A stretch of 64,000 nucleotides of DNA, from assembly GCF_013315695.1 (NCBI RefSeq), contig NZ_CP054353.1; one strand, given 5' to 3'. Both the position numbers and the translations under genes were made by a program. Origin of the DNA: Escherichia coli (lineage in GTDB: Bacteria; Pseudomonadota; Gammaproteobacteria; Enterobacterales; Enterobacteriaceae). Each line of letters begins with the position of its first letter. Within the stretch, counting starts at the first letter, position 1. The notes under the pieces are model-generated. The model saw only the letters and a list, made by a program, of their open reading frames with translations. It searched no databases and had not been told where the DNA came from. This document shows, piece after piece, positions 27,995 to 42,124 of the stretch.

Positions 27995-30595
27995 ATGAGC
28001 ACAAAACCACTCTTCCTGTTACGGAAAGCGAAAAAATCATCCGGTGAACCTGACGTCGTCCTGTGGGCAAGCAACGATTTTGAATCGACCTGTGCCACTC
28101 TGGACTACCTGATCGTTAAGTCAGGTAAAAAACTGAGCAGCTATTTTAAAGCTGTTGCCACGAATTTTCCTGTCGTTAATGACCTGCCCGCTGAAGGTGA
28201 GATCGATTTTACCTGGAGTGAACGCTATCAACTCAGCAAAGACTCCATGACATGGGAACTAAAACCGGGAGCAGCACCAGACAACGCTCACTATCAAGGC
28301 AATACCAACGTCAACGGCGAAGACATGACTGAGATTGAGGAGAATATGCTACTCCCAATTTCTGGCCAGGAACTGCCCATTCGTTGGCTTGCTCAACACG
28401 GCAGCGAAAAACCGGTAACGCACGTTTCACGCGACGGACTCCAGGCATTACACATTGCTCGGGCTGAAGAACTACCGGCTGTTACTGCCCTGGCTGTTTC
28501 CCACAAAACCAGCCTGCTCGACCCGCTGGAAATTCGCGAACTCCACAAACTGGTTCGTGACACTGACAAAGTTTTCCCTAATCCTGGTAATTCAAACCTG
28601 GGACTGATAACTGCTTTTTTCGAAGCATACCTGAACGCTGACTACACCGATCGAGGACTGCTGACAAAAGAGTGGATGAAGGGTAATCGTGTTTCACACA
28701 TCACTCGCACGGCTTCCGGTGCTAATGCTGGCGGCGGAAACCTCACCGATCGCGGCGAAGGTTTCGTACACGATCTGACGTCACTGGCGCGCGACGTAGC
28801 CACTGGCGTACTGGCCCGTTCAATGGATCTGGACATCTATAACCTTCATCCGGCACACGCTAAACGCATTGAGGAAATTATCGCTGAAAATAAACCGCCC
28901 TTTTCTGTTTTCCGCGACAAATTCATCACCATGCCTGGCGGGCTGGATTATTCCCGCGCCATCGTGGTTGCGTCCGTAAAAGAAGCACCAATTGGGATCG
29001 AGGTCATCCCCGCGCACGTCACTGAATATCTGAACAAAGTACTGACTGAAACCGATCATGCCAACCCTGATCCGGAAATCGTGGATATTGCCTGCGGTCG
29101 CTCCTCTGCCCCGATGCCGCAGCGAGTAACAGAAGAAGGAAAACAGGATGATGAAGAAAAACCGCAACCATCTGGAACAACGGCAGTTGAACAGGGAGAG
29201 GCTGAAACAATGGAACCGGACGCAACTGAACATCATCAGGACACGCAGCCGCTGGATGCTCAGTCACAGGTAAATTCTATTGATGCGAAATATCAGGAAC
29301 TGCGGGCAGAACTCCATGAAGCCCGGAAAAACATTCCATCAAAAGATCCTGTCGATGCCGATAAATTGCTTGCTGCATCACGTGGTGAATTTGTTGACGG
29401 AATTAGCGACCCGAACGATCCGAAATGGGTAAAGGGGATCCAGACTCGCGATTGTGTGTACCAGAACCAGCCAGAAACGGAAAAAACCAGCCCGGATATG
29501 AATCAACCTGAGCCAGTAGTGCAACAGGAACCGGAAATAGCCTGCAATGCCTGCGGCCAGACTGGCGGGGATAACTGCCCTGACTGTGGTGCGGTGATGG
29601 GCGACGCAACATACCAGGAAACATTCGATGAAGAGAGTCAGGTTGAAGCTAAGGAAAATGATCCGGAGGAAATGGAAGGCGCTGAACATCCGCACAATGA
29701 GAATGCTGGCAGCGATCCGCATCGCGATTGCAGTGATGAAACTGGCGAAGTCGCAGATCCCGTAATCGTAGAAGACATAGAGCCAGGTATTTATTACGGA
29801 ATTTCGAATGAGAATTACCACGCGGGTCCCGGTGTCAGTAAGTCTCAGCTCGATGACATTGCTGATACTCCGGCACTATATTTGTGGCGTAAAAATGCCC
29901 CCGTTGACACCACAAAGACAAAAACGCTCGATTTAGGAACCGCTTTCCACTGCCGGGTACTTGAACCGGAAGAATTCAGTAACCGCTTTATCGTAGCACC
30001 TGAATTTAACCGCCGTACAAACGCCGGAAAAGAAGAAGAGAAAGCGTTTCTGATGGAATGCGCAAGCACAGGAAAAACAGTTATCACTGCGGAAGAAGGC
30101 CGGAAAATTGAACTCATGTATCAAAGCGTTATGGCTTTGCCGCTGGGGCAATGGCTTGTTGAAAGCGCCGGACACGCTGAATCATCAATTTACTGGGAAG
30201 ATCCTGAAACAGGAATTTTGTGTCGGTGCCGTCCGGACAAAATTATCCCTGAATTTCACTGGATCATGGACGTGAAAACTACGGCGGATATTCAACGATT
30301 CAAAACCGCTTATTACGACTACCGCTATCACGTTCAGGATGCATTCTACAGTGACGGTTATGAAGCACAGTTTGGAGTGCAGCCAACTTTCGTTTTTCTG
30401 GTTGCCAGCACAACTATTGAATGCGGACGTTATCCGGTTGAAATTTTCATGATGGGCGAAGAAGCAAAACTGGCAGGTCAACAGGAATATCACCGCAATC
30501 TGCGAACCCTGTCTGACTGCCTGAATACCGATGAATGGCCAGCTATTAAGACATTATCACTGCCCCGCTGGGCTAAGGAATATGCAAATGACTAA
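27995..30595 (+). CDS. recE: Exodeoxyribonuclease VIII (RecE)
   Basis: 866-aa [44 protein letters not shown]...; full length with the C-terminal nuclease domain; overlaps the recT start by 8 nt. Confidence 0.95.
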
Positions 30596-31397
30596 GCAAC
30601 CACCAATCGCAAAAGCCGATCTGCAAAAAACTCAGGGAAACCGTGCACCAGCAGCAGTTAAAAATAGCGACGTGATTAGTTTTATTAACCAGCCATCAAT
30701 GAAAGAGCAACTGGCAGCAGCTCTTCCACGCCATATGACGGCTGAACGTATGATCCGTATCGCCACCACAGAAATTCGTAAAGTTCCGGCGTTAGGAAAC
30801 TGTGACACTATGAGTTTTGTCAGTGCGATCGTACAGTGTTCACAGCTCGGACTTGAGCCAGGTAGCGCCCTCGGTCATGCATATTTACTGCCTTTTGGTA
30901 ATAAAAACGAAAAGAGCGGTAAAAAGAACGTTCAGCTAATCATTGGCTATCGCGGCATGATTGATCTGGCTCGCCGTTCTGGTCAAATCGCCAGCCTGTC
31001 AGCCCGTGTTGTCCGTGAAGGTGACGAGTTTAGCTTCGAATTTGGCCTTGATGAAAAGTTAATACACCGCCCGGGAGAAAACGAAGATGCCCCGGTTACC
31101 CACGTCTATGCTGTCGCAAGACTGAAAGACGGAGGTACTCAGTTTGAAGTTATGACGCGCAAACAGATTGAGCTGGTGCGCAGCCTGAGTAAAGCTGGTA
31201 ATAACGGGCCGTGGGTAACTCACTGGGAAGAAATGGCAAAGAAAACGGCTATTCGTCGCCTGTTCAAATATCTGCCCGTATCAATTGAGATCCAGCGTGC
31301 AGTATCAATGGATGAAAAGGAACCACTGACAATCGATCCTGCAGATTCCTCTGTATTAACCGGGGAATACAGTGTAATCGATAATTCAGAGGAATAA
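30588..31397 (+). CDS. recT: Single-strand annealing recombinase RecT
   Basis: ORF track 30531..31397; ATG at 30588 gives [35 protein letters not shown]... (269 aa). Confidence 0.95.
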
Positions 31398-31453
31398 TTC
31401 AGCCTGGCGGTGTAATGCACCGCCAACTTGAAATATTTTTTATGAGAAAAATT

Positions 31454-31648
31454 ATGAGATATGACAATGTTAAACCATGTCCATTTTGTGGTTGTCCATC
31501 AGTAACGGTGAAAGTCATTTCAGGATATTACCGAGCGAAGTGTAACGGATGCGAATCCCGAACCGGTTATGGTGGAAGTGAAAAAGAAGCACTCGAAAGA
31601 TGGAATAAACGAACCACTGGAAATAATAACGGAGGTGTTCATGTATAA
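31454..31648 (+). CDS. ralR: Restriction-alleviation protein / type I toxin RalR (Lar)
   Basis: ORF track 31415..31648; ATG at 31454 gives MRYDNVKPCPFCGCPSVTVKVISGYYRAKCNGCESRTGYGG... (64 aa). Confidence 0.85.
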   Translation: MRYDNVKPCPFCGCPSVTVKVISGYYRAKCNGCESRTGYGGSEKEALERWNKRTTGNNNGGVHV

Positions 31649-31829
31649 AATTACCGCCACTATTGAAAAGGAAGGTGGCACTCCTACTAACTGGACAAGA
31701 TATTCAAAATCTAAACTAACGAAATCAGAATGCGAAAAAATGCTCTCAGGTAAAAAAGAAGCAGGCGTTTCCAGAGAGCAGAAAGTAAAACTGATAAATT
31801 TTAATTGCGAGAAACTTCAGTCCTCGTGA
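31641..31829 (+). CDS. ydaC: Rac-prophage protein YdaC
   Basis: ORF track 31569..31829; ATG at 31641 (GGAGG upstream) gives MYKITATIEKEGGTPTNWTRYSKSKL... (62 aa); overlaps the ralR 3-prime end by 8 nt. Confidence 0.7.
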   Translation: MYKITATIEKEGGTPTNWTRYSKSKLTKSECEKMLSGKKEAGVSREQKVKLINFNCEKLQSS

Positions 31830-31928
31830 ATTGCATTGTATTCAAATTAAAACTTCATAGCTGATTATTAATAATCAACATCGGGCGTCAATTTCAGTCT
31901 AACATTGGCGCCTGCCAGAGGTGATGCG

Positions 31929-32144
31929 ATGGCACAAGTAATCTTTAATGAAGAGTGGATGGTTGAATACGGCCTGATGCTTCGCACTGGTCTGGGGGCC
32001 AGACAAATTGAAGCATACCGCCAGAACTGTTGGGTGGAGGGCTTCCACTTCAAACGAGTATCTCCTTTAGGTAAGCCAGACAGCAAACGAGGGATTATCT
32101 GGTACAACTATCCAAAGATAAATCAGTTTATCAAAGACTCATGA
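31929..32144 (+). CDS. xisR: Rac-prophage excisionase
   Basis: ORF track 31905..32144; ATG at 31929 gives [44 protein letters not shown]... (71 aa); stop overlaps the intR start region. Confidence 0.8.
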
Positions 32145-32145
32145 T

Positions 32146-33379
32146 ATGTCTAAATTACCAACAGGTGTCGAGATTAGAGGTAGATACATTCGCATCTGGT
32201 TCATGTTTCGAGGAAAACGATGTCGGGAAACATTAAAAGGCTGGGAGATTACAAACAGTAATATTAAAAAGGCCGGAAATTTAAGAGCGCTGATAGTTCA
32301 TGAAATAAACTCCGGTAAATTTGAGTATTTAAGACGTTTTCCCCAGTCCAGCACTGGGGCAAAAATGGTGATAACGAGAGTCATAAAAACGTTCGGAGAG
32401 CTTTGTGATATCTGGACAAAAATTAAAGAGACAGAGTTAACAACAAACACAATAAAGAAAACGAAATCACAATTAAAAACACTCAGAATAATAATTTGTG
32501 AAAGTACCCTGATATCACATATTCGTTATAGCGATATCTTAAACTACCGGAATGAACTGCTGCATGGAGAAACGCTTTACCTGGATAATCCAAGATCCAA
32601 CAAAAAAGGAAGAACCGTGCGCACAGTTGATAACTATATCGCCCTGCTCTGTTCGCTGTTACGTTTTGCGTATCAGTCGGGATTTATATCAACCAAACCA
32701 TTTGAAGGAGAAAAAATTACAGCGAAACAGAATAAAGCCTGATCCGTTATCTAAAACAGAATTCAATGCATTAATGGAAAGTGAAAAAGGACAGAGCCAG
32801 AACATGTGGAAATTTGCAGTTTACTCAGGACTTCGTCACGGGGAACTGGCAGCTCTGGCGTGGGAGGATGTGGATCTCGAAAAGGGAATAGTGAATGTCA
32901 GAAGAAACCTGACGATACTTGATATGTTCGGTCCCCCAAAAACAAATGCCGGGATCCGGACAGTAACACTACTGCAGCCTGCTCTTGAAGCACTGAAGGA
33001 GCAATACAAACTGACCGGGCATCATCGCAAAAGCGAAATCACCTTTTATCATCGGGAGTACGGCAGAACCGAAAAGCAAAAACTGCATTTTGTTTTCATG
33101 CCCAGGGTGTGTAACGGAAAACAAAAACCTTATTACTCGGTAAGCAGTTTGGGGGCAAGGTGGAATGCAGCAGTAAAACGTGCTGGTATTCGCCGCCGTA
33201 ATCCGTACCATACGCGGCATACTTTTGCCTGCTGGCTGTTGACGGCAGGAGCGAACCCGGCATTTATAGCCAGCCAAATGGGGCATGAAACTGCGCAGAT
33301 GGTGTATGAAATTTACGGTATGTGGATTGATGACATGAACGACGAACAGATAGCCATGTTGAATGCGCGGTTATCATAG
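32146..33379 (+). pseudogene. intR: Rac-prophage tyrosine integrase, apparently split by a +/-1 frameshift near 32709-32716
   Basis: ORF 32146..32742 (198 aa, ...STKPFEGEKITAKQNKA*) and ORF 32552..33379 carry the N- and C-terminal parts (catalytic ...HTRHTFACWLL...) in adjacent frames; frames switch in the run gagaaaaaatt; the sum of the parts is about 411 codons. Confidence 0.7.
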
Positions 33380-33430
33380 TTGCAAAGTTTGCCCCCAATT
33401 TGCCCCATTTAGTACCAGAGAACTGAAATA

Positions 33431-34366
33431 ATGCAAGAAAATCAACAAATTACAAAGAAAGAACAATACAACCTGAACAAATTACAAAAACGTCTGCGTC
33501 GTAACGTGGGCGAAGCCATTGCTGACTTCAATATGATTGAAGAAGGCGATCGCATCATGGTTTGCCTCTCCGGGGGTAAAGACAGCTATACCATGCTGGA
33601 AATTCTGCGCAATTTGCAGCAAAGCGCGCCAATCAATTTTTCGCTGGTGGCTGTTAACCTCGATCAAAAACAACCGGGCTTCCCGGAACACGTTCTGCCC
33701 GAGTATCTTGAAAAGCTGGGCGTTGAGTACAAGATTGTGGAAGAGAACACTTACGGTATCGTGAAAGAGAAGATTCCGGAGGGCAAAACCACTTGCTCAC
33801 TGTGTTCTCGTCTTCGTCGCGGTATCCTTTATCGCACCGCAACGGAACTGGGGGCGACGAAGATCGCGTTGGGTCACCATCGTGACGATATCCTGCAAAC
33901 GCTGTTCTTAAATATGTTCTACGGCGGCAAGATGAAAGGTATGCCTCCGAAACTGATGAGCGATGATGGCAAACATATCGTGATTCGCCCGCTGGCCTAC
34001 TGCCGCGAGAAAGATATTCAGCGCTTTGCCGATGCAAAAGCGTTCCCGATTATTCCGTGCAACCTGTGCGGTTCACAGCCTAACCTGCAACGTCAGGTGA
34101 TTGCTGACATGTTGCGTGACTGGGATAAACGTTATCCGGGGCGTATCGAGACGATGTTCAGCGCGATGCAGAATGTGGTGCCATCGCATCTGTGCGATAC
34201 CAACCTGTTCGATTTCAAAGGCATTACCCACGGTTCTGAAGTGGTTAACGGGGGTGATCTGGCGTTTGATCGCGAAGAGATCCCTCTACAACCGGCGGGT
34301 TGGCAGCCTGAAGAAGATGAAAATCAGTTGGATGAGTTACGACTGAATGTGGTTGAAGTGAAATAA
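33431..34366 (+). CDS. ttcA: tRNA 2-thiocytidine(32) synthetase TtcA
   Basis: 311-aa ORF with PP-loop SGGKDS and CxxC motifs; the att core lies inside its first 50 nt. Confidence 0.95.
33455..33480. repeat. Prophage attachment core, left copy (26-bp direct repeat)
   Basis: aagaaagaacaatacaacctgaacaa, identical to 19132..19157. Confidence 0.75.
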
Positions 34367-34371
34367 CCCGG

Positions 34372-34450
34372 ATAGCGCCCGATGCGCAAGCTTATCGGGC
34401 TACTCTTATGGAGGCCGGAGAAGACGCGGCCAGCGTCGCATCCGGCAATC
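34372..34450. repeat. REP/BIME-type extragenic palindromes
   Basis: cccgatgcgcaagcttatcgggc and gcggccagcgtcgcatccggc resemble REP consensus units in opposite orientations, between convergent ttcA and dbpA. Confidence 0.5.
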
Positions 34451-34494
34451 CCGAAGAAGATGTTTACTCTTGCACCCGGCAATTCAACATTTCA

Positions 34495-35868
34495 TTATTT
34501 TAATAACCGCACCCGGCACGTTTTTCCTTTAATCTTCCCGCCCTGTAACTGTTTCCATGCTTTATGAGCAACAGCCTGACGCACCGCGACATAGACATGC
34601 GCCGGATGCACGGCGATTTTGCCAATATCTGCGCCATCAAGCCCGATGTCTCCTGTCAGCGCACCTAATACATCACCCGGGCGCATTTTGGCTTTTTTCC
34701 CGCCATCGATACATAACGTTGCCATTTCTGCTTCCAGCGGCACAATGGAACTATTAACTGGCGGCGTTTGCCAGTTAAGTTTTATCTGCAACATGTCAGA
34801 AATGATATTGGCCCGCTGTGCTTCTTCCGGGGCACAGAAACTGATCGCCAGACCGCTATTTCCTGCACGAGCTGTACGGCCGATGCGATGTACATGAACT
34901 TCAGGGTCCCACGCCAGCTCAAAGTTCACCACCAGCTCAAGCGATTTTATATCCAGACCACGCGCAGCAACATCAGTCGCGACCAGTACACGGGCGCTAC
35001 CGTTAGCAAAACGGACCAGGGTCTGATCGCGATCACGTTGCTCCAGATCGCCGTGTAACGACAATGCACTTTGCCCTACTTCATTCAGCGCGTCGCAGAC
35101 AGCCTGGCAATCTTTTTTGGTATTGCAAAACACCACGCAAGAGGATGGCTGATGCAAACTTAATAACCGTTGCAACAGCGGAATTTTGCCTTTGCTGGAT
35201 GTCTCATAAAATTGTTGTTCAATGGGAGGCAGAGCATCTGTTGAGTCAATTTCAATCGCCAATGGATCGCGTTGCACTCGTCCGCTGATTGCGGTGATGG
35301 CTTCCGGCCAGGTTGCCGAAAACAGAAGCGTCTGTCGAGATGCTGGCGCAAAACGGATAACATCATCAATGGCATCGCTAAATCCCATATCCAGCATGCG
35401 ATCGGCTTCATCCATCACCAGCATATTCAACGCATCCAGTGATACCGTGCCTTTTTGCAGATGGTCCAGCAAACGACCCGGGGTTGCCACGATAATATGC
35501 GGCGCATGTTGCAACGAATCACGCTGCATACCGAACGGTTGACCACCGCACAACGTCAAAATTTTGGTATTTGGCAGAAAACGCGCCAGCCGACGCAATT
35601 CACCTGCTACCTGATCCGCCAGTTCACGCGTAGGACACAGCACTAAAGCCTGGGTTTGAAATAGCGACGCATCAATTTGCTGTAACAAGCCGAGGCCAAA
35701 AGCCGCCGTTTTGCCACTGCCGGTTTTCGCCTGCACGCGAACATCTTTTCCGGCAAGGATCGCCGGAAGCGCGGCGGCCTGCACCGGCGTCATGGTTAAA
35801 TAACCCAACTCATTAAGGTTCGTGAGTTGGGCGGGAGGCAAAACATTCAGGGTAGAAAAAGCGGTCAC
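34495..35868 (-). CDS. dbpA: ATP-dependent 23S rRNA helicase DbpA (DEAD-box)
   Basis: 457-aa ORF with AKTGSGKT, DEAD and SAT motifs. Confidence 0.95.
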   Translation of the reverse strand: MTAFSTLNVLPPAQLTNLNELGYLTMTPVQAAALPAILAGKDVRVQAKTGSGKTAAFGLGLLQQIDASLFQTQALVLCPTRELADQVAGELRRLARFLPNTKILTLCGGQPFGMQRDSLQHAPHIIVATPGRLLDHLQKGTVSLDALNMLVMDEADRMLDMGFSDAIDDVIRFAPASRQTLLFSATWPEAITAISGRVQRDPLAIEIDSTDALPPIEQQFYETSSKGKIPLLQRLLSLHQPSSCVVFCNTKKDCQAVCDALNEVGQSALSLHGDLEQRDRDQTLVRFANGSARVLVATDVAARGLDIKSLELVVNFELAWDPEVHVHRIGRTARAGNSGLAISFCAPEEAQRANIISDMLQIKLNWQTPPVNSSIVPLEAEMATLCIDGGKKAKMRPGDVLGALTGDIGLDGADIGKIAVHPAHVYVAVRQAVAHKAWKQLQGGKIKGKTCRVRLLK

Positions 35869-35897
35869 AATCTATTCTCGTGGTCATCGACGCAAAG

Positions 35898-36071
35898 TCA
35901 GCAGGCACGTATCCTCGCAGATCTACGCTCACGATGCGACAATTTAATCGGTTCTTCATCGGGGGGTGGGTCAGGCATGGGTTGCGGGCGAGGGATCGGA
36001 TCGGGCACAGGAACAGGATCGCCAGGAATCGGTTCAGGGACAGGAATTTGCAAATAAATGAGTGTCGTCAT
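35898..36071 (-). CDS. Candidate proline-rich small protein (57 aa), unannotated
   Basis: Below the ORF-track cutoff; ATG at 36069-36071 preceded by GGAGGG; encodes MTTLIYLQIPVPEPIPGDPVPVPDPIPRPQPMPDPPPDEEPIKLSHRERRSARIRAC*; co-oriented with zntB, fnrS and dbpA. Confidence 0.35.
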   Translation of the reverse strand: MTTLIYLQIPVPEPIPGDPVPVPDPIPRPQPMPDPPPDEEPIKLSHRERRSARIRAC

Positions 36072-36128
36072 ATTTCCCTCCGGTCATTGGGTGGACTCTT
36101 AAAGGGTAGACGCTGATATATAACAGGC

Positions 36129-36250
36129 AAAAAAAAGCCGACTCATCAAAGTCGGCGTCGTACGAATCAATTGTGCTATGCAGTAATTCAAAAAAGGAAG
36201 TAAGACAATATGGAGCGCAACGCCCATCGCTTGACGTTGCATTCACCTGC
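36129..36250 (-). ncRNA. fnrS: FnrS sRNA (FNR-activated, Hfq-dependent)
   Basis: Reverse complement starts GCAGGTGAATGCAACGTCAAGCGATGGGCG... and ends in hairpin GCCGACTTTGATGAGTCGGC plus T8; 122 nt; lies between zntB and dbpA as in K-12. Confidence 0.8.
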
Positions 36251-36285
36251 AAGGGAGATATTGCCCTGAATGGGTAGAGAGTTTA

Positions 36286-36299
36286 TTGACTTCGCTCAA
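36286..36299. promoter_or_regulatory. FNR binding site of the fnrS promoter
   Basis: ttgacttcgctcaa (TTGAT-N4-ATCAA type), centred about 42 bp upstream of the inferred FnrS 5-prime end. Confidence 0.6.
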
Positions 36300-36345
36300 A
36301 CTTTGCGGCGTTTTTGTATACAGACAGCCGGGAAAATTGCTTTTG

Positions 36346-37350
<1,005 letters not shown>

Positions 37351-37583
37351 TTATTTTGTAGTCTAGCCTTCTGGCCCTGTTACGCAACATCTCATCACCC
37401 CATTACCCTGAAATGATTAATAAAATTCTGTCTAAATTGAATACAAAAAGCAAAATGCTTTTCCATATACAAACCGTGTGAAGTGTTAAATAGCGTCTAT
37501 CATTATCAGAATTATCTGATCATATGACGTGGCTTTTTTGCGATCGGATAGCAACAAAAATTGATAAAAATAACGGGATCTCA

Positions 37584-38816
37584 ATGATTACGCACAACTT
37601 CAATACCCTGGACTTACTCACCAGTCCTGTCTGGATCGTTTCGCCCTTTGAGGAACAGTTAATTTATGCCAACAGCGCGGCGCGACTGTTGATGCAAGAC
37701 CTCACGTTTAGTCAGCTACGAACCGGTCCCTATTCCGTCTCCTCACAAAAAGAACTGCCGAAATACCTCTCCGATCTGCAAAACCAACACGATATTATCG
37801 AAATCCTCACCGTTCAACGTAAAGAAGAGGAAACAGCATTAAGCTGTCGGCTTGTTTTGCGAGAGCTGACAGAAGCAGAACCGGTGATTATTTTCGAAGG
37901 TATCGAAGCGCCGGCAACGCTGGGTTTAAAAGCCAGTCGCTCGGCAAATTATCAGCGCAAAAAACAAGGTTTTTATGCGAGCTTTTTTCTGACTAACTCT
38001 GCACCAATGTTGTTGATTGCCCCCTCACGAGATGGCCAAATCGTTGATGCTAACCTCGCCGCGCTCAATTTCTATGGTTATAACCATGAAACGATGTGCC
38101 AGAAACATACCTGGGAAATAAATATGCTCGGGCGTCGCGTCATGCCTATCATGCATGAAATTTCGCATTTACCCGGTGGCCATAAGCCTTTGAATTTTGT
38201 TCATAAACTGGCGGATGGTTCGACTCGTCATGTGCAGACCTATGCCGGTCCGATTGAAATTTATGGCGACAAGCTCATGTTATGTATTGTGCATGATATT
38301 ACTGAGCAAAAACGGCTGGAGGAGCAGCTGGAACATGCTGCCCACCATGACGCGATGACCGGATTACTGAATCGGCGACAGTTTTATCACATTACCGAGC
38401 CAGGCCAAATGCAGCACCTCGCCATCGCTCAGGATTACAGCTTGTTGCTCATCGACACCGATCGTTTTAAACACATTAACGATCTCTATGGGCATTCTAA
38501 AGGTGATGAGGTGTTATGCGCCCTCGCCCGCACCCTCGAAAGTTGCGCTCGCAAAGGCGATTTGGTGTTTCGTTGGGGAGGCGAAGAGTTTGTCTTATTG
38601 CTACCAAGAACCCCACTGGATACCGCGCTTTCGCTGGCTGAAACTATCCGCGTAAGCGTGGCAAAAGTGAGTATTTCGGGCTTACCACGCTTTACCGTCA
38701 GCATTGGTGTGGCGCATCACGAAGGAAATGAAAGCATCGATGAGCTGTTTAAACGCGTTGATGATGCTTTGTATCGGGCGAAAAATGATGGACGCAACCG
38801 CGTGCTGGCGGCATAA
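37584..38816 (+). CDS. dgcM: Diguanylate cyclase DgcM (PAS-PAS-GGDEF)
   Basis: ORF track 37524..38816; ATG at 37584 gives MITHNFNTLDLL... (410 aa) with an intact RWGGEEF active-site motif. Confidence 0.9.
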   Translation: MITHNFNTLDLLTSPVWIVSPFEEQLIYANSAARLLMQDLTFSQLRTGPYSVSSQKELPKYLSDLQNQHDIIEILTVQRKEEETALSCRLVLRELTEAEPVIIFEGIEAPATLGLKASRSANYQRKKQGFYASFFLTNSAPMLLIAPSRDGQIVDANLAALNFYGYNHETMCQKHTWEINMLGRRVMPIMHEISHLPGGHKPLNFVHKLADGSTRHVQTYAGPIEIYGDKLMLCIVHDITEQKRLEEQLEHAAHHDAMTGLLNRRQFYHITEPGQMQHLAIAQDYSLLLIDTDRFKHINDLYGHSKGDEVLCALARTLESCARKGDLVFRWGGEEFVLLLPRTPLDTALSLAETIRVSVAKVSISGLPRFTVSIGVAHHEGNESIDELFKRVDDALYRAKNDGRNRVLAA

Positions 38817-38836
38817 GCCGCGGATGCGTCTCGAGA

Positions 38837-39400
38837 TCAACGACTGCGCTTAGCGTGGCGCTCCCAGTTTTCTTGCTTTGCCTGTGCCGTTTTACGTAGT
38901 GCGACGTAACACGCCCCGCTGCCGCCATGATGCGGTAGCGCGGTACAATATGCCTGGACATCATCAAATTCGGTCAACCAGCGCGCCACATAGCTGCGGA
39001 CAATATTGGCATGTGATTTATCTTCCCGCCCTTTACCATGAATAATCAGCACATTACGCAAACCATCCGCCAGGGCTTGTTGAATGAAACTGAACACCAT
39101 TTTGCGGCACTCTTCCACCGGCTGGCGCAAAAGATTCAGGCTCGCCTGTTGCGGATATTTACCACTGCGCAGCTTATCCAGCACCCCATGTTGCAACCCT
39201 TCCCGCCGAAACTCCAGCGGCTGAGTTAGCGGGATGATGTCGAGAAATCCAGTGGTGAGGAAATTATCAAGTTGCAGCGTGTCGATACGCTGCGGCGCAC
39301 GTTGGTTACGCGTGGGATGCCAGTGGACATCTGTAGCATGTTTCAGCGGCTGGACATCTTCCATGGCGTCAAGAAACAGCGATTTGTCGTCAAGGTTCAT
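38837..39400 (-). CDS. smrA: Smr-domain DNA endonuclease SmrA
   Basis: 187-aa ORF with C-terminal Smr domain (...LIIHGKGREDKSHANIVRSYVARWL...). Confidence 0.9.
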   Translation of the reverse strand: MNLDDKSLFLDAMEDVQPLKHATDVHWHPTRNQRAPQRIDTLQLDNFLTTGFLDIIPLTQPLEFRREGLQHGVLDKLRSGKYPQQASLNLLRQPVEECRKMVFSFIQQALADGLRNVLIIHGKGREDKSHANIVRSYVARWLTEFDDVQAYCTALPHHGGSGACYVALRKTAQAKQENWERHAKRSR

Positions 39401-39627
39401 GTTACATCCTCCCGCAATTAAGAGCGCGATATGATAACCAGACCGGGCTGGTCCAACAACGTATTACCCAAATTTCCAGTAATAAGTTCCAAATGTTGCC
39501 GATATTTTAAGCAAAATGCTTATGCATGATTATTCATTCACTATATTAATAATGTAACTTATATTTTCGTGAAATCTGTCACTGAAGAAAATTGGCAACT
39601 AAAGGTTAAAACCGTTATAACACAGTC

Positions 39628-39722
39628 ACCGGCGCAGAGGAGACCATGCCGGATTTAAGACGCGGATGCACTGCTGTGTGTACTGTAGAGTCTGGCGGAT
39701 GTCGACAGACTCTATTTTTTTA
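39628..39722 (+). ncRNA. mcaS: McaS (IsrA) sRNA
   Basis: ACCGGCGCAGAGGAGACCATGCCGGATTTAAGACGCGGATGCACTGCTGTGTGTACTGTAGAGTCTGGCGGATGTCGACAGACTCTATTTTTTT; matches McaS and its terminator; lies between smrA and abgR as in K-12. Confidence 0.8.
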
Positions 39723-39729
39723 TGCAGTT

Positions 39730-40638
39730 TTAACTTTGCAGATAGCCGCATTCTCGCCGAAATTGCGTGATTAATGACGCGGTCAGTGGTGTCTGGCGAC
39801 TATCACGCCGCTGAATCAAATAATAGGTCGCTTTCGGTAAAATTTCGCTAACCGGCAACATCACCAGCCCCTGTCCGTGCAAGGGATCGCAGCCCATTTC
39901 TTCAGGTAGTATGCTGAGAAAATCGCTTTTTGCCACCAGACTGATACAGGCTGAGAACGTCTCGCAGACTACGCCGACCTGTGGCGTTTGCGCCTGCTCG
40001 TCAAGCAATTCACTCAACTGTTTGTAGTAGCTGCCGTGTGGCGTCGGCATTGTCCAGCTGTAGTCCAGTAACTGTTTGATCGAACGGGCACCAATGGCGG
40101 GATGTCCCGGGCGGCAAAAGATCGCGAATTGCTTTTCCAGTAATTTCTCAAAAGTAAATTCGTGGTCGTAGGGTCCCTGATAATAGGTATTGATGGTGAA
40201 ATCCAGTTCTCCCTGGCGCAATTCATTAATCATCGACACCAGTTGCCCTTCCATAATGCGTACTTTTACCTGTGGATGCTGCTGATGAAAACGAGATATG
40301 ACAGCTGGCATCAGACTGCGGGAAATACTGGCCCCCATGCCGATATTAATTTGCCCTGCCAGTTGCCCTTGTCGTTGGCGAATATCCTCTTGCGCTGCGC
40401 GCAGCTCTTCAAGAATAAGACTGGCGTGCTGATAAAAACTTTCACCGGCATCAGTTAACGTCACGCCTTTACTACGGCGAAAAAAGAGTTGCGCCGCTAA
40501 CCCTTCTTCCAGCTCCTGAATAGATTTACTCAGTGCCGGTTGCGACATATTCAACATTCGGCTCGCTCCGCGAATGCTGCCCTGACGAGCCACTTCAACA
40601 AAAGCCCGAATTTGATGAATTTTTACCTGAAAAGCCAT
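39730..40638 (-). CDS. abgR: LysR-family regulator of the abg operon
   Basis: 302-aa ORF with N-terminal helix-turn-helix; divergent from abgA. Confidence 0.9.
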   Translation of the reverse strand: MAFQVKIHQIRAFVEVARQGSIRGASRMLNMSQPALSKSIQELEEGLAAQLFFRRSKGVTLTDAGESFYQHASLILEELRAAQEDIRQRQGQLAGQINIGMGASISRSLMPAVISRFHQQHPQVKVRIMEGQLVSMINELRQGELDFTINTYYQGPYDHEFTFEKLLEKQFAIFCRPGHPAIGARSIKQLLDYSWTMPTPHGSYYKQLSELLDEQAQTPQVGVVCETFSACISLVAKSDFLSILPEEMGCDPLHGQGLVMLPVSEILPKATYYLIQRRDSRQTPLTASLITQFRRECGYLQS

Positions 40639-40813
40639 GACGCCACCGATAACCGTTATTTATCAGACCAAAGAAACTGGCATCTACTTTAATGCAGATG
40701 ATTGTGTCAGGGTAATTTATGAACGGTTAAAACTGTGAAAAATCAGTTAGTGATAAGTAAAAACTATCGCTACGTGAACCGGGTCACACTTTTTACTGAT
40801 GACGGGAAAGGTT

Positions 40814-42124
40814 ATGGAGTCTTTGAATCAATTTATTAATTCGCTTGCCCCAAAATTATCGCACTGGCGACGTGATTTTCACCACTATGCAGAGTCTGGC
40901 TGGGTGGAATTCCGCACTGCCACCGTTGTTGCGGAAGAATTGCACCAGCTCGGTTATTCACTGGCGCTGGGCCGCGAAGTCGTTAATGAAAGTAGCCGGA
41001 TGGGATTACCTGATGAATTCACTCTACAACGCGAATTCGAGCGCGCTCGTCAACAGGGGGCGCTAGAACAATGGATTGCGGCTTTTGAAGGCGGTTTCAC
41101 TGGCATCGTCGCTACCCTGGATACCGGTCGCCCCGGTCCGGTGATGGCTTTCCGTGTCGATATGGACGCGCTGGATCTCAGTGAAGAGCAGGATGTCAGC
41201 CATCGCCCCTACCGCGACGGTTTTGCGTCATGTAACGCCGGAATGATGCATGCCTGTGGTCATGATGGACATACCGCCATTGGGCTTGGGCTGGCGCATA
41301 CCCTTAAACAGTTCGAGTCCGGACTACATGGCGTCATCAAACTGATTTTTCAACCTGCAGAGGAAGGTACGCGTGGCGCGCGGGCGATGGTCGATGCAGG
41401 AGTAGTGGATGATGTTGATTATTTTACTGCCGTGCACATTGGCACTGGCGTACCTGCGGGCACCGTGGTGTGCGGCAGTGATAATTTTATGGCAACCACC
41501 AAATTTGACGCGCACTTCACCGGAACCGCCGCTCACGCAGGCGCAAAACCAGAAGACGGTCACAATGCCTTGTTGGCTGCAGCACAAGCAACTCTTGCAC
41601 TGCATGCAATCGCCCCGCACAGCGAAGGAGCTTCCAGAGTAAACGTGGGCGTTATGCAGGCAGGAAGCGGTCGTAATGTTGTTCCTGCCTCGGCGTTGCT
41701 GAAAGTGGAAACACGCGGGGCCAGCGACGTCATTAATCAATATGTTTTTGAACGTGCACAACAAGCGATTCAGGGCGCAGCAACCATGTATGGTGTCGGC
41801 GTTGAAACTCGTCTGATGGGTGCAGCTACCGCCAGTTCTCCTTCGCCGCAATGGGTCGCATGGTTGCAAAGTCAGGCGGCTCAGGTCGCGGGGGTCAATC
41901 AGGCCATTGAACGTGTTGAAGCGCCTGCGGGTTCCGAAGATGCCACATTAATGATGGCCCGCGTGCAGCAACATCAAGGGCAAGCCTCCTATATGGTGTT
42001 TGGCACACAGCTGGCGGCAGGTCATCACAACGAAAAATTCGATTTTGACGAGCAGGTTCTCGCTATTGCCGTCGAAACGCTGGCGCGCACCGCGCTCAAT
42101 TTTCCCTGGACGCGAGGTATCTGA
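40814..42124 (+). CDS. abgA: p-Aminobenzoyl-glutamate hydrolase subunit A (M20 peptidase)
   Basis: ORF track 40799..42124; ATG at 40814 gives MESLNQFINSLAPKL... (436 aa). Confidence 0.9.
   Translation: MESLNQFINSLAPKLSHWRRDFHHYAESGWVEFRTATVVAEELHQLGYSLALGREVVNESSRMGLPDEFTLQREFERARQQGALEQWIAAFEGGFTGIVATLDTGRPGPVMAFRVDMDALDLSEEQDVSHRPYRDGFASCNAGMMHACGHDGHTAIGLGLAHTLKQFESGLHGVIKLIFQPAEEGTRGARAMVDAGVVDDVDYFTAVHIGTGVPAGTVVCGSDNFMATTKFDAHFTGTAAHAGAKPEDGHNALLAAAQATLALHAIAPHSEGASRVNVGVMQAGSGRNVVPASALLKVETRGASDVINQYVFERAQQAIQGAATMYGVGVETRLMGAATASSPSPQWVAWLQSQAAQVAGVNQAIERVEAPAGSEDATLMMARVQQHQGQASYMVFGTQLAAGHHNEKFDFDEQVLAIAVETLARTALNFPWTRGI

Follow-up and report, generated by a model that had tools for sequence, protein, structure and literature searches.

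The 57-codon open reading frame found between fnrS and dbpA in the analysed window, a 64,000-nt stretch of Escherichia coli DNA, is the known small-protein gene ynaL of the Enterobacteriaceae and Erwiniaceae, formerly listed as the "sRNA" C0343. Taken as a whole, the evidence is probably best explained by a translated small-protein gene with a free-standing cytoplasmic product, the 3' end of which doubles as the promoter of dbpA. A conserved promoter of its own, placed directly after the FnrS terminator and with a transcription start detected only in stationary phase, serves ynaL, the transcripts of which should continue into dbpA; dbpA itself is transcribed during exponential growth from an extended -10 promoter embedded in ynaL codons 41-46 and 50-57. 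YnaL would act in the cytoplasm as a protein in its own right, with a core presumably forming an acidic, extended polyproline-type rod of net charge -6 that most likely offers a binding surface to a putative partner protein. The features of the locus are listed in Table 1.

Table 1. Features of the fnrS-ynaL-dbpA locus (positions refer to the window).
Feature	Position	Strand	Evidence or remark
FnrS sRNA, upstream neighbour	36133..36250	-	Rfam RF01796, 134.8 bits
ynaL promoter	36096..36130	-	conservation in ynaL loci and EDL933 TSS
ynaL promoter parts	-35 TTGCCT 36130..36125; 16-nt spacer; C-13 36109; -10 TACCCT 36108..36103	-	
ynaL Shine-Dalgarno GGAGGG	36076..36081	-	sequence; 4 nt before ATG
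ynaL CDS, 57 codons + TGA	35898..36071	-	ORF list, sequence, RefSeq, Pfam PF23677
Proline-rich core, codons 16-40, PGDPVPVPDPIPRPQPMPDPPPDEE	35952..36026	-	codon-position variability, dN/dS
DPPPD, codons 34-38, overlapping DPP/PPP/PPD polyproline motifs	35958..35972	-	sequence
Frozen block 1, codons 41-46, CCGATTAAATTGTCGCAT	35934..35951	-	upstream dbpA promoter part, about -47 to -30
Frozen block 2, codons 50-57, dbpA promoter core	35904..35924	-	dS 0.010
dbpA promoter parts	TG 35919-35918; -10 GAGGAT 35916..35911; discriminator ACGTGC 35910..35905; predicted +1 C 35904	-	
dbpA Shine-Dalgarno GAGAA	35875..35879	-	GAGA invariant, leader alignment of 25 genera
dbpA, ATP-dependent RNA helicase, downstream neighbour	34495..35868	-	ORF list, RefSeq; GTG start

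The position of the reading frame and its 57-residue product are precisely those of the original prediction, the ORF list and the sequence placing the start ATG at 36071..36069 and the stop TGA at 35900..35898. The label "unannotated" that came with it is wrong: RefSeq already names the gene ynaL, Pfam holds the family PF23677 and detection of the SPA-tagged protein has been published. The RefSeq product, "proline-rich small protein YnaL" (WP_001296046.1), has an accession shared between K-12-like strains and the strain matching at 100%, and the annotation is present in approximately 5,390 of 5,426 complete E. coli genomes. The Pfam match is full length (136.8 bits, i-E 2.2e-40, query 1-57 against model 1-57/57), and a search of NCBIfam with YnaL returned compositional matches only and no YnaL model. 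The 57-aa K-12 YnaL tabulated by VanOrsdel et al. 2018 (PMC6001520) is identical to the product of the window ORF and occupies the same position between fnrS and dbpA; that the ORF is genuinely translated is borne out by the detection of this protein in the same study, by SPA-tag immunoblot and tetracycline ribosome profiling, and by a ribosome coverage value of 2.49 for the C0343 ORF in EHEC RIBOseq (Neuhaus et al. 2017, PMC5331693). The suggested correspondence to C0343 is also confirmed, as Neuhaus et al. 2017, citing RNAcode 2011, state that C0343 codes for the 57-aa protein (PMC5331693).

Evolutionary rates and promoter counts were obtained from 80 dbpA loci, 67 of which carry ynaL. The ORF is far beyond chance. 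YnaL contains 16 prolines in 57 residues, the highest proline fraction among the 276 window ORFs of at least 40 aa. Within codons 16-40, variability at third codon positions ranges from 0.2 to 0.66 and is about 0 at the first two, all four proline codons occur in the alignment of ynaL loci, and a dS of 1.36 is accompanied by a dN/dS of 0.076, compared with 0.044-0.051 for dbpA. The conservation and dN/dS check proposed for the ORF thus yields a clear coding signature in the core, which lends the published evidence of translation indirect support, and, judged by these substitution patterns, codons 16-40 are under purifying selection at the peptide level, comparable in strength to that acting on dbpA. 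The N-terminus, short and variable, is the least conserved part of the protein. The ribosome-binding site originally proposed is present and strong, and its GGAGG, together with the ATG, is conserved across genera in the alignment of ynaL-bearing loci.

In the last third of ynaL the constraint acts on the DNA and not on the peptide, and codons 41-46 and 50-57 carry the dbpA promoter. In codons 41-46 dS falls to 0.07 with essentially no third-position variation, and Kluyvera, which has no ynaL ORF, still keeps the DNA of this block and of the tail. The elements TGn and nAGnAT are found in 78 of the 80 dbpA loci, the discriminator ACGCGC in 71 and the +1 C in 77; within the discriminator, ynaL of the window strain differs from that of K-12 by a synonymous C-to-T change at 35907, leaving the protein unchanged. 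In published Cappable-seq data from EHEC EDL933, a strain other than that of the window, TSS 2177448 coincides with the homologous C, which follows GAGGAT by 7 nt and precedes the dbpA GTG by 36 nt. This start, which is seen in all four exponential conditions, puts the hexamer at -12 to -7 and the TG at -15/-14, as in a sigma-70 extended -10 promoter. The DbpA protein, too, is at a higher level in exponential phase. GAGGAT agrees with the -10 consensus at three of six positions and the -35 is weak. A default promoter scan of the window called no promoter between fnrS and dbpA, because both promoters described here score below its 9-of-12 threshold; in the outgroups Dryocola and Cedecea the scanner does call the homologous ATGACC-17-TAGAAT with TG.

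No conserved RNA structure was found in the 3' third of ynaL and the dbpA leader (RNAalifold, 0 pairs over 25 genera; single-sequence z-score of -0.99), and a constraint at the DNA (promoter) level is therefore preferred. The basic tail RSARIRAC is thus largely a by-product of codons 50-57 being the dbpA promoter read in frame. It is also dispensable, since 13 lineages (13 of the 67 loci) have tail-less forms of YnaL that stop before it. Other candidates for this stretch were discarded: a mimic of 23S rRNA hairpin 92 serving DbpA autoregulation was dropped as no hairpin whatever is predicted, sigma-54 has a GG..GC spacing that fits in E. coli but a GG that, by eye, is not conserved in the outgroups, and sigma-E, sigma-32 and sigma-28 were rejected on inspection by eye.

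Upstream of ynaL, the pattern TTGNNN-N16-TAnnnT with a C at -13 occurs in 64 of the 67 loci, the spacer being of 16 nt in every case. The predicted +1, a G at 36096, gives a 5'UTR of 25 nt; TSS 2177640 of EDL933 falls on the homologous G, which follows TACCCT by 7 nt and precedes the ATG by 25 nt; this start was detected in stationary phase alone, in all four of its conditions. The supplementary tables covered for SMRT-Cappable-seq and for Cappable-seq (Ettwiller 2016) gave no match. The promoter looks sigma-S-like, given the C at -13, present in 64 of 64 promoter-bearing loci, and the A/T-rich stretch that follows TACCCT, an appearance with which the growth-phase pattern is consistent. At the other end of the gene, 29 nt separate the ynaL stop from the dbpA GTG (35868), and a terminator scan detected no terminator between the two genes, so that ynaL transcripts should also run into dbpA.

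YnaL has no predicted signal peptide, lipobox or transmembrane segment (maximum 19-residue Kyte-Doolittle mean of 0.63), and a PDB sequence search with it returned 0 matches at E values up to 10. The AF2 model has a pLDDT of about 90 for residues 21-40 with neither helix nor strand, in favour of an extended conformation, high pLDDT on proline-rich stretches being no proof of stable structure. Modelling of YnaL with DbpA, joined by a Gly-Ser tether and based on a paired alignment of 12 rows, gave a mean pLDDT of 41 with DbpA itself unfolded, a model too poor to speak for or against binding. The net charge of -6 of the proline-rich region, together with the lack of an export signal and of PDB relatives, led to rejection of a ribosome binder resembling proline-rich antimicrobial peptides. 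The three prolines of DPPPD are 96-100% conserved in the 67 loci, except that E. albertii and C. youngae have PSP and one Citrobacter has PPQ. Translation of XPPX motifs needs EF-P. From its sequence, DPPPD is expected to share this need and, given the PxP periodicity in addition to DPPPD, synthesis of YnaL is probably gated by EF-P/EfpL; the EF-P dependence of such polyproline motifs is supported by PMC11611912. The portion of the EfpL ribosome-profiling tables that was covered has no ynaL row.

Four other explanations of the locus were weighed. That the region is a non-coding sRNA, or that constraint on the DNA merely happens to keep its frame open with no protein function, is scarcely credible. 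Its catalogue entry as sRNA C0343 and the partial constraint of codons 41-57 as DNA point in that direction, but the codon-position test and the published detection of the protein (PMC5331693, PMC6001520) refute it: synonymous change in the core is saturated at a low dN/dS, the ribosome-binding site and ATG are conserved, the Rfam scan matches FnrS only, the C0343 family is reported as withdrawn from Rfam (PMC5331693), and the part that was folded shows no conserved RNA structure. The original prediction also likened the protein to periplasm-spanning or polyproline linkers, on account of its PxP periodicity and basic tail. Read as a TonB-like spacer with a basic anchor, it has weak compositional matches to TonB proline-rich regions in its favour as well. 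This idea fails because YnaL lacks a signal peptide or membrane segment, and is very improbable also in view of its poorly conserved N-terminus, of scores far from significance (NCBIfam TonB NF008084, 20.8 bits against a cutoff of 315; Pfam TonB_N, E=0.75) and of a "basic tail" that is in-frame promoter DNA missing in 13 lineages; the TonB likeness is compositional only.

Two further explanations accept the protein and tie it to one of its neighbours. The ORF begins 61 nt past FnrS on the same strand, and read-through from FnrS had been proposed to couple it to anaerobic induction. Such read-through is not needed, since ynaL has its own conserved promoter and TSS, yet the synteny of fnrS and ynaL, conserved in two families, still hints at some connection. 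YnaL might be a functional partner of FnrS, the two genes forming a module that serves oxygen limitation and stationary phase, with YnaL made in part from a bifunctional sRNA-mRNA transcript that reads through the terminator, as in SgrS/SgrT; we consider this unlikely. The YnaL family always lies downstream of fnrS, Erwiniaceae included, the two being adjacent in 67 of the 80 Enterobacteriaceae loci and also, whatever gene comes next, in Erwinia psidii, Phytobacter and an unclassified Enterobacter; besides, the ynaL -35 overlaps the end of the FnrS U-tract, and each of the four stationary-phase conditions shows the FnrS TSS as well as that of ynaL. Against this stand the primary TSS of ynaL itself, the strength of the FnrS terminator (stem at 36156..36137 with 8 bp, 5 of them GC pairs, followed by eight Us) and the predicted pairing of FnrS to the ynaL and dbpA translation starts, whose duplex energies do not go beyond those of mononucleotide shuffles (fractions 0.31 and 0.06). 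Also, a lacZ fusion over the entire zntB-dbpA intergenic region gave low activity and just marginal FNR dependence in Grainger et al. 2007 (PMC1802558), with which the FNR site AAAGTTTGAGCGAAGTCAATAAAC at 36304..36281 agrees, and adjacency alone may be historical. On the dbpA side, ynaL could be mainly a cis-acting leader, in which pausing at PxP/DPPPD, sensitive to EF-P, EfpL or prolyl-tRNA, sets the number of ribosomes reaching the stop 29 nt ahead of the weak GTG/GAGAA start; if so, expression of DbpA, the helicase that remodels 23S rRNA in its peptidyl-transferase region, would be coupled to the capacity for Pro-Pro bond making. This is quite improbable. In its favour, 67 of 80 species have the ynaL stop 14-63 nt ahead of dbpA and no intervening terminator, the GTG start of dbpA comes with a weak Shine-Dalgarno, about 25 residues are strongly conserved at the peptide level as in an arrest or sensor peptide, XPX/XPPX motifs are dense and stationary-phase ynaL transcripts must extend into dbpA. 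Against it, the dbpA promoter and TSS lie downstream of nearly the entire ORF, so that the main exponential-phase dbpA mRNA lacks ynaL; the stop-to-start distance varies over the range just given, no remodellable RNA structure is conserved, and Kluyvera and the outgroups express dbpA with no ynaL. Coupling to dbpA is not obligate either: Phytobacter and genomes like that of Enterobacter sp. BIGb0383 retain an ORF with intact core and promoter that is followed by a terminator and convergent ttcA (loci L084 and L088), with no dbpA downstream, and ttcA sits between the ORF and dbpA in Erwinia psidii, an insertion ahead of dbpA seen in loci L085-87. As ynaL persists where dbpA is no longer the next gene, a free-standing protein is preferred over a dbpA leader.

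The find as such was already known and, being a rediscovery of ynaL, adds nothing to the gene catalogue. The new detail, drawn from the 80 dbpA loci, concerns the selection on the core peptide, the frozen blocks of the dbpA promoter and the conserved ynaL promoter. YnaL emerges as a deeply conserved small protein, the core of which matches an essential-type enzyme in its low dN/dS. Where a coding sequence and the promoter of its neighbour share bases, a signature is left behind, namely a collapse of the synonymous rate and a "peptide" that survives in-frame stops and loss of the ORF, and this signature could help to locate promoters embedded in other genes. The 400 bp upstream of the gene for a ribosome-assembly helicase bring together one promoter used in stationary phase, another used in exponential phase and an anaerobic sRNA, a layout that yields simple testable predictions on the growth-phase control of dbpA. 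In a wider reading, which is speculative and to our judgment rather unlikely, YnaL would be a small protein of stationary phase or oxygen limitation whose acidic polyproline rod binds a translation or ribosome-biogenesis component, and its own synthesis would report EF-P capacity. Were this true, the candidate partners would be DbpA, EF-P/EfpL or a 50S assembly intermediate; ynaL would have grown through a pre-existing dbpA promoter, a single 50-bp stretch serving as coding sequence and growth-rate-type promoter; and stationary-phase ynaL transcription would cross the exponential dbpA promoter, interfering with it or replacing it, thereby providing the ribosome-assembly helicase with a built-in growth-phase switch.

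Several known systems resemble parts of this arrangement. The TonB spacer (PF16031 TonB_N; NF008084) shares with YnaL its X-Pro periodicity and, probably, an extended conformation of the polyproline-II type, but YnaL, at only 57 aa, has no membrane anchor or C-terminal TonB domain and scores far under the HMM thresholds, and its proline region is purely acidic where the spacer has Glu-Pro and Lys-Pro halves. As with SgrS/SgrT, a small-protein gene first catalogued as a non-coding RNA is tied to a regulatory sRNA; unlike there, ynaL is transcribed from a TSS of its own and lies outside the sRNA, past its terminator. Leader ORFs with proline codons and arrest peptides are known from mgtP/mgtL of Salmonella mgtCBR and mgtA and from SecM. 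These likewise consist of a short ORF before a larger gene, with proline motifs, EF-P-dependent speed (the link between MgtL and EF-P is mentioned in PMC11611912) and peptide conservation, whereas ynaL holds the dbpA promoter within the ORF, lacks an alternative RNA structure, outlives its downstream gene and encodes a protein that builds up to detectable levels. Finally, the dbpA promoter is comparable to those of rRNA and ribosomal-protein genes by sequence and growth phase, having TGn, a -10 with invariant A-11 and T-7, the GC-rich discriminator ACGCGC, a weak -35, a TSS 7 nt downstream and mainly exponential use at a ribosome-assembly gene. Promoters embedded in the 3' part of the preceding gene are a known kind, as are extended -10 promoters with GC-rich discriminators at rRNA and ribosomal-protein genes.

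The 57-codon reading frame between fnrS and dbpA opens with ATG, encodes MTTLIYLQIPVPEPIPGDPVPVPDPIPRPQPMPDPPPDEEPIKLSHRERRSARIRAC and agrees exactly, in coordinates and product, with the original prediction; it is the already known gene ynaL, correctly sighted. For a 501-nt query around it, matches covering 80% or more of the query occur in 5,390 of the 5,426 complete E. coli genomes, the annotation beneath the match being "ynaL: proline-rich small protein YnaL" or "protein YnaL". Both a K-12-like genome and the 100% identical genome list the product as WP_001296046.1, and Pfam PF23677 ("YnaL") matches the product end to end (136.8 bits). In K-12, ynaL lies at 1409308-1409481 between fnrS and dbpA and encodes an identical 57-aa sequence, which has been detected as a chromosomally SPA-tagged protein and is also noted as an unassigned positive of a tetracycline ribosome-profiling screen (VanOrsdel et al. 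2018, PMC6001520). The frame had therefore been wrongly taken as unannotated. Its suggested identity with C0343 is right: this former sRNA contains the ynaL ORF, its 57-aa protein was shown with RNAcode (Washietl 2011, as stated there), the ribosome coverage value is 2.49 in EHEC, and C0343 has been removed from Rfam (Neuhaus et al. 2017, PMC5331693). Consistent with this removal, an Rfam 15 search returned no match at ynaL. A translated ORF corresponding to C0343 is thus what stands of the earlier interpretation, everything beyond that being unsupported.

Coordinates of ynaL, its signals and neighboring features in the window
Feature	Position	Strand	Basis or remark
ynaL ORF	35898..36071	-	window sequence and ORF list
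GGAGGG (Shine-Dalgarno of ynaL)	36081..36076	-	window sequence
ynaL promoter -35	36130..36125	-	overlaps end of FnrS U-tract
ynaL promoter -10	36108..36103	-	
ynaL promoter +1	36096	-	homologous to TSS 2177640
FnrS, upstream of ynaL	36133..36250	-	Rfam RF01796, 134.8 bits
dbpA promoter TG	35919-35918	-	homologous element
dbpA promoter -10 GAGGAT	35916..35911	-	homologous element
dbpA promoter +1	35904	-	homologous to TSS 2177448
dbpA start codon GTG	35868	-	29 nt downstream of ynaL stop
76-aa glycine-rich ORF	35827..36057	+	opposite ynaL
15-codon ORF	37343..37390	-	13 nt upstream of zntB
RalA antitoxin sRNA	31647..31825	-	225 bits; 30000..42000 searched
McaS sRNA	39628..39723	+	117 bits; 30000..42000 searched

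Other small features occur nearby. The glycine-rich ORF opposite ynaL, which contains …GGGSGMGCGRGIGSGTGTGSPGIGSGTG…, was rejected as an independent gene candidate, being the mirror image of the ynaL proline codons. The 15-codon ORF, named ydaN/'protein YnaN' in RefSeq, is possibly a zntB leader. RalA belongs to the Rac prophage.

It had been suggested that ynaL could be coupled to anaerobic induction by read-through from FnrS, whose terminator is a strong intrinsic one (eight U after a stem of 8 bp). Such read-through is not needed, since ynaL has its own conserved promoter and start site. Within the otherwise variable 60-nt fnrS-ynaL spacer, 64 of 67 loci carry TTGCCT-N16-cTACCCT followed by A/T-rich sequence, with a spacing of always 16 nt and always C at -13. 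In EHEC, TSS 2177640 was recovered only in the four stationary-phase conditions, and the FnrS +1 (2177794) in exponential LB and all stationary conditions (PMC10469882). On the EDL933 sequence the former is a G that lies 7 nt past TACCCT, leaving 25 nt to the ynaL ATG. A C at -13 and a stationary-only pattern are typical of sigma-S promoters, a class to which the ynaL promoter may belong. When the entire zntB-dbpA intergenic region was fused to lacZ, activity was low and depended only marginally on fnr (Grainger 2007, PMC1802558).

The conservation of ynaL was analyzed in 80 dbpA loci, one per species. Synteny of zntB-fnrS-dbpA holds in 72-73 of them, and an intact YnaL of 44-64 aa occurs in 67, ending 14-63 nt before dbpA; the GGAGG Shine-Dalgarno and ATG are conserved among relatives, the first ~15 residues are not. 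When the 67 ynaL-bearing loci are aligned by codon without gaps, change in the Pro-rich core (codons 16-40) is nearly confined to third positions, with all four Pro codons occurring (dS 1.36, dN/dS 0.076; dbpA in the same genomes, 1.26-1.46 and 0.044-0.051). Synonymous change is essentially absent from codons 41-46 (dS 0.07, dN/dS 0.87) and 50-57 (dS 0.010, dN/dS 8.3), codons 47-49 between these frozen blocks are nearly free (dS 1.06, dN/dS 0.72), and no indels occur in codons 41-57. This sharp split, together with a tail free of indels, indicates that selection acts on the peptide in the core and on the DNA or RNA in the tail. Thirteen lineages have a stop directly after "...PIK(L/M)S(H)R", in three of which "RGRSERIRAC" is still readable beyond it, and Kluyvera has lost the ORF (fnrS-to-dbpA distance 118-119 nt vs 256-285 nt) while keeping both frozen blocks, which shows that the peptide sequence of the tail is dispensable. 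Length variants also occur in E. coli: E69 (L005, about 2270-2470) has lost 33 nt in frame between PVPxPIP repeats and encodes a 46-aa YnaL, and O157:H7 EDL933 (L083, 1546..1716) has TGA in place of the TGC codon for Cys57, which shortens the protein to 56 aa.

The dbpA promoter accounts for the frozen blocks. RNA structure was rejected as their cause (0 consensus pairs, z-score -0.99). The bases invariant in all genera are TGn + nAGnAT, then a GC-rich stretch, and the same element occurs in the outgroups Cedecea, Dryocola, Siccibacter and Atlantibacter, where the upstream neighbor of dbpA differs. Of the 80 loci, 78 carry this motif (hexamer GAGGAT in 72, discriminator ACGCGC in 71, start-base C in 77). 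A consensus promoter scanner missed it in E. coli and called the homologous ATGACC-17-TAGAAT with upstream TG in Dryocola and Cedecea. Cappable-seq of EHEC EDL933 assigned minus-strand TSS 2177448 to dbpA (PMC10469882, Table S5; NZ_CP008957 coordinates), detected in 4/4 exponential and 2/4 stationary conditions, a pattern that fits the higher exponential-phase level of DbpA protein (PMC13393375). This base is a C exactly 7 nt past the T of GAGGAT, so that the hexamer spans -12..-7 and TG occupies -15/-14; it lies 36 nt before the dbpA GTG, within the last sense codon of ynaL. GC-rich discriminators of rRNA-type promoters are linked to growth-rate or stringent control, which by analogy suggests that the dbpA promoter may be controlled likewise.

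Five loci from Kluyvera and relatives (L072, L074, L076, L079, L081), in which the proline-rich ORF is deleted and both frozen blocks are retained ~120 nt upstream of dbpA, offer a natural control for a promoter that lacks the ORF. At window position 35907 (-) the present sequence has T vs C in 71/78 species (ACGTGC instead of ACGCGC; synonymous, ynaL codon 55), a minority haplotype, since identity of 99% or more over 35800-36300 is reached by only 32 of 5,392 E. coli genomes; the substitution might alter promoter kinetics. Dryocola and Cedecea (L073, L082; 2472..2499 +) have a second, better-consensus promoter-like site, CCGACA-16-TATAAT, abutting the dbpA GTG, which if used would imply a leaderless or internal dbpA start.

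A role of ynaL purely as a dbpA leader is unlikely, given its synteny, the separate dbpA promoter, the unconserved distance from ynaL stop to dbpA start and the absence of RNA switches, taken together. Among three fetched contexts of YnaL-like relatives, Phytobacter and Enterobacter sp. have zntB-fnrS-ynaL with an intact ynaL promoter element, followed by a terminator and convergent ttcA with no dbpA downstream, and Erwinia psidii has ttcA between ynaL and dbpA. The ORF thus goes with fnrS rather than dbpA, and it persists where there is no downstream gene for it to regulate. A contribution to dbpA expression on the long stationary-phase transcript is possible.

As a protein, YnaL has the highest proline fraction (16 of 57 residues) among the 276 window ORFs of at least 40 aa, and a net charge of -6 over residues 1-42 and +5 over 43-57. 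Analysis of the 57-aa sequence found no TM or signal segment, a PDB search found no relative, and a relationship to TonB was rejected, the matches being compositional only. The AF2 model (24 homologs) has no helix or strand, pLDDT ~90 only at residues 21-40 and pTM 0.23, indicating a probable extended rod, not a globule; a tethered YnaL-DbpA model was uninterpretable and counts neither way. DPPPD comprises DPP, PPP and PPD, the remainder being a series of XPX motifs, and these belong to the classes relieved by EF-P and EfpL (PMC11611912), so that YnaL synthesis may reasonably be expected to depend on EF-P.

A word-seeded search recovered 164 relatives, all small and with PF23677; those with a named source are from Escherichia, Citrobacter, Salmonella, Enterobacter, Klebsiella, Raoultella, Kosakonia, Leclercia, Lelliottia and other Enterobacteriaceae. 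An exhaustive profile search over 1.84 billion representatives gave only 32 matches, tiny proteins except one of 1,597 aa (P0121), whose 19 separate matching stretches (116 bits in total) presumably reflect the composition of a repetitive Pro-rich protein. Weaker matches are YnaL-like proteins from Phytobacter, Scandinavium, unclassified Enterobacter, Mixta and Erwinia, sharing the core DPVPTDPVPxPDPIPxPQPxPDPP with different tails.

In the best-supported model, YnaL would act on its own as an acidic polyproline ligand made in stationary phase. New relative to the published record are the division of ynaL between a core selected as peptide and a tail selected as promoter, the synteny of fnrS and ynaL in two families, and the assignment of two published EHEC start sites to conserved promoter elements.
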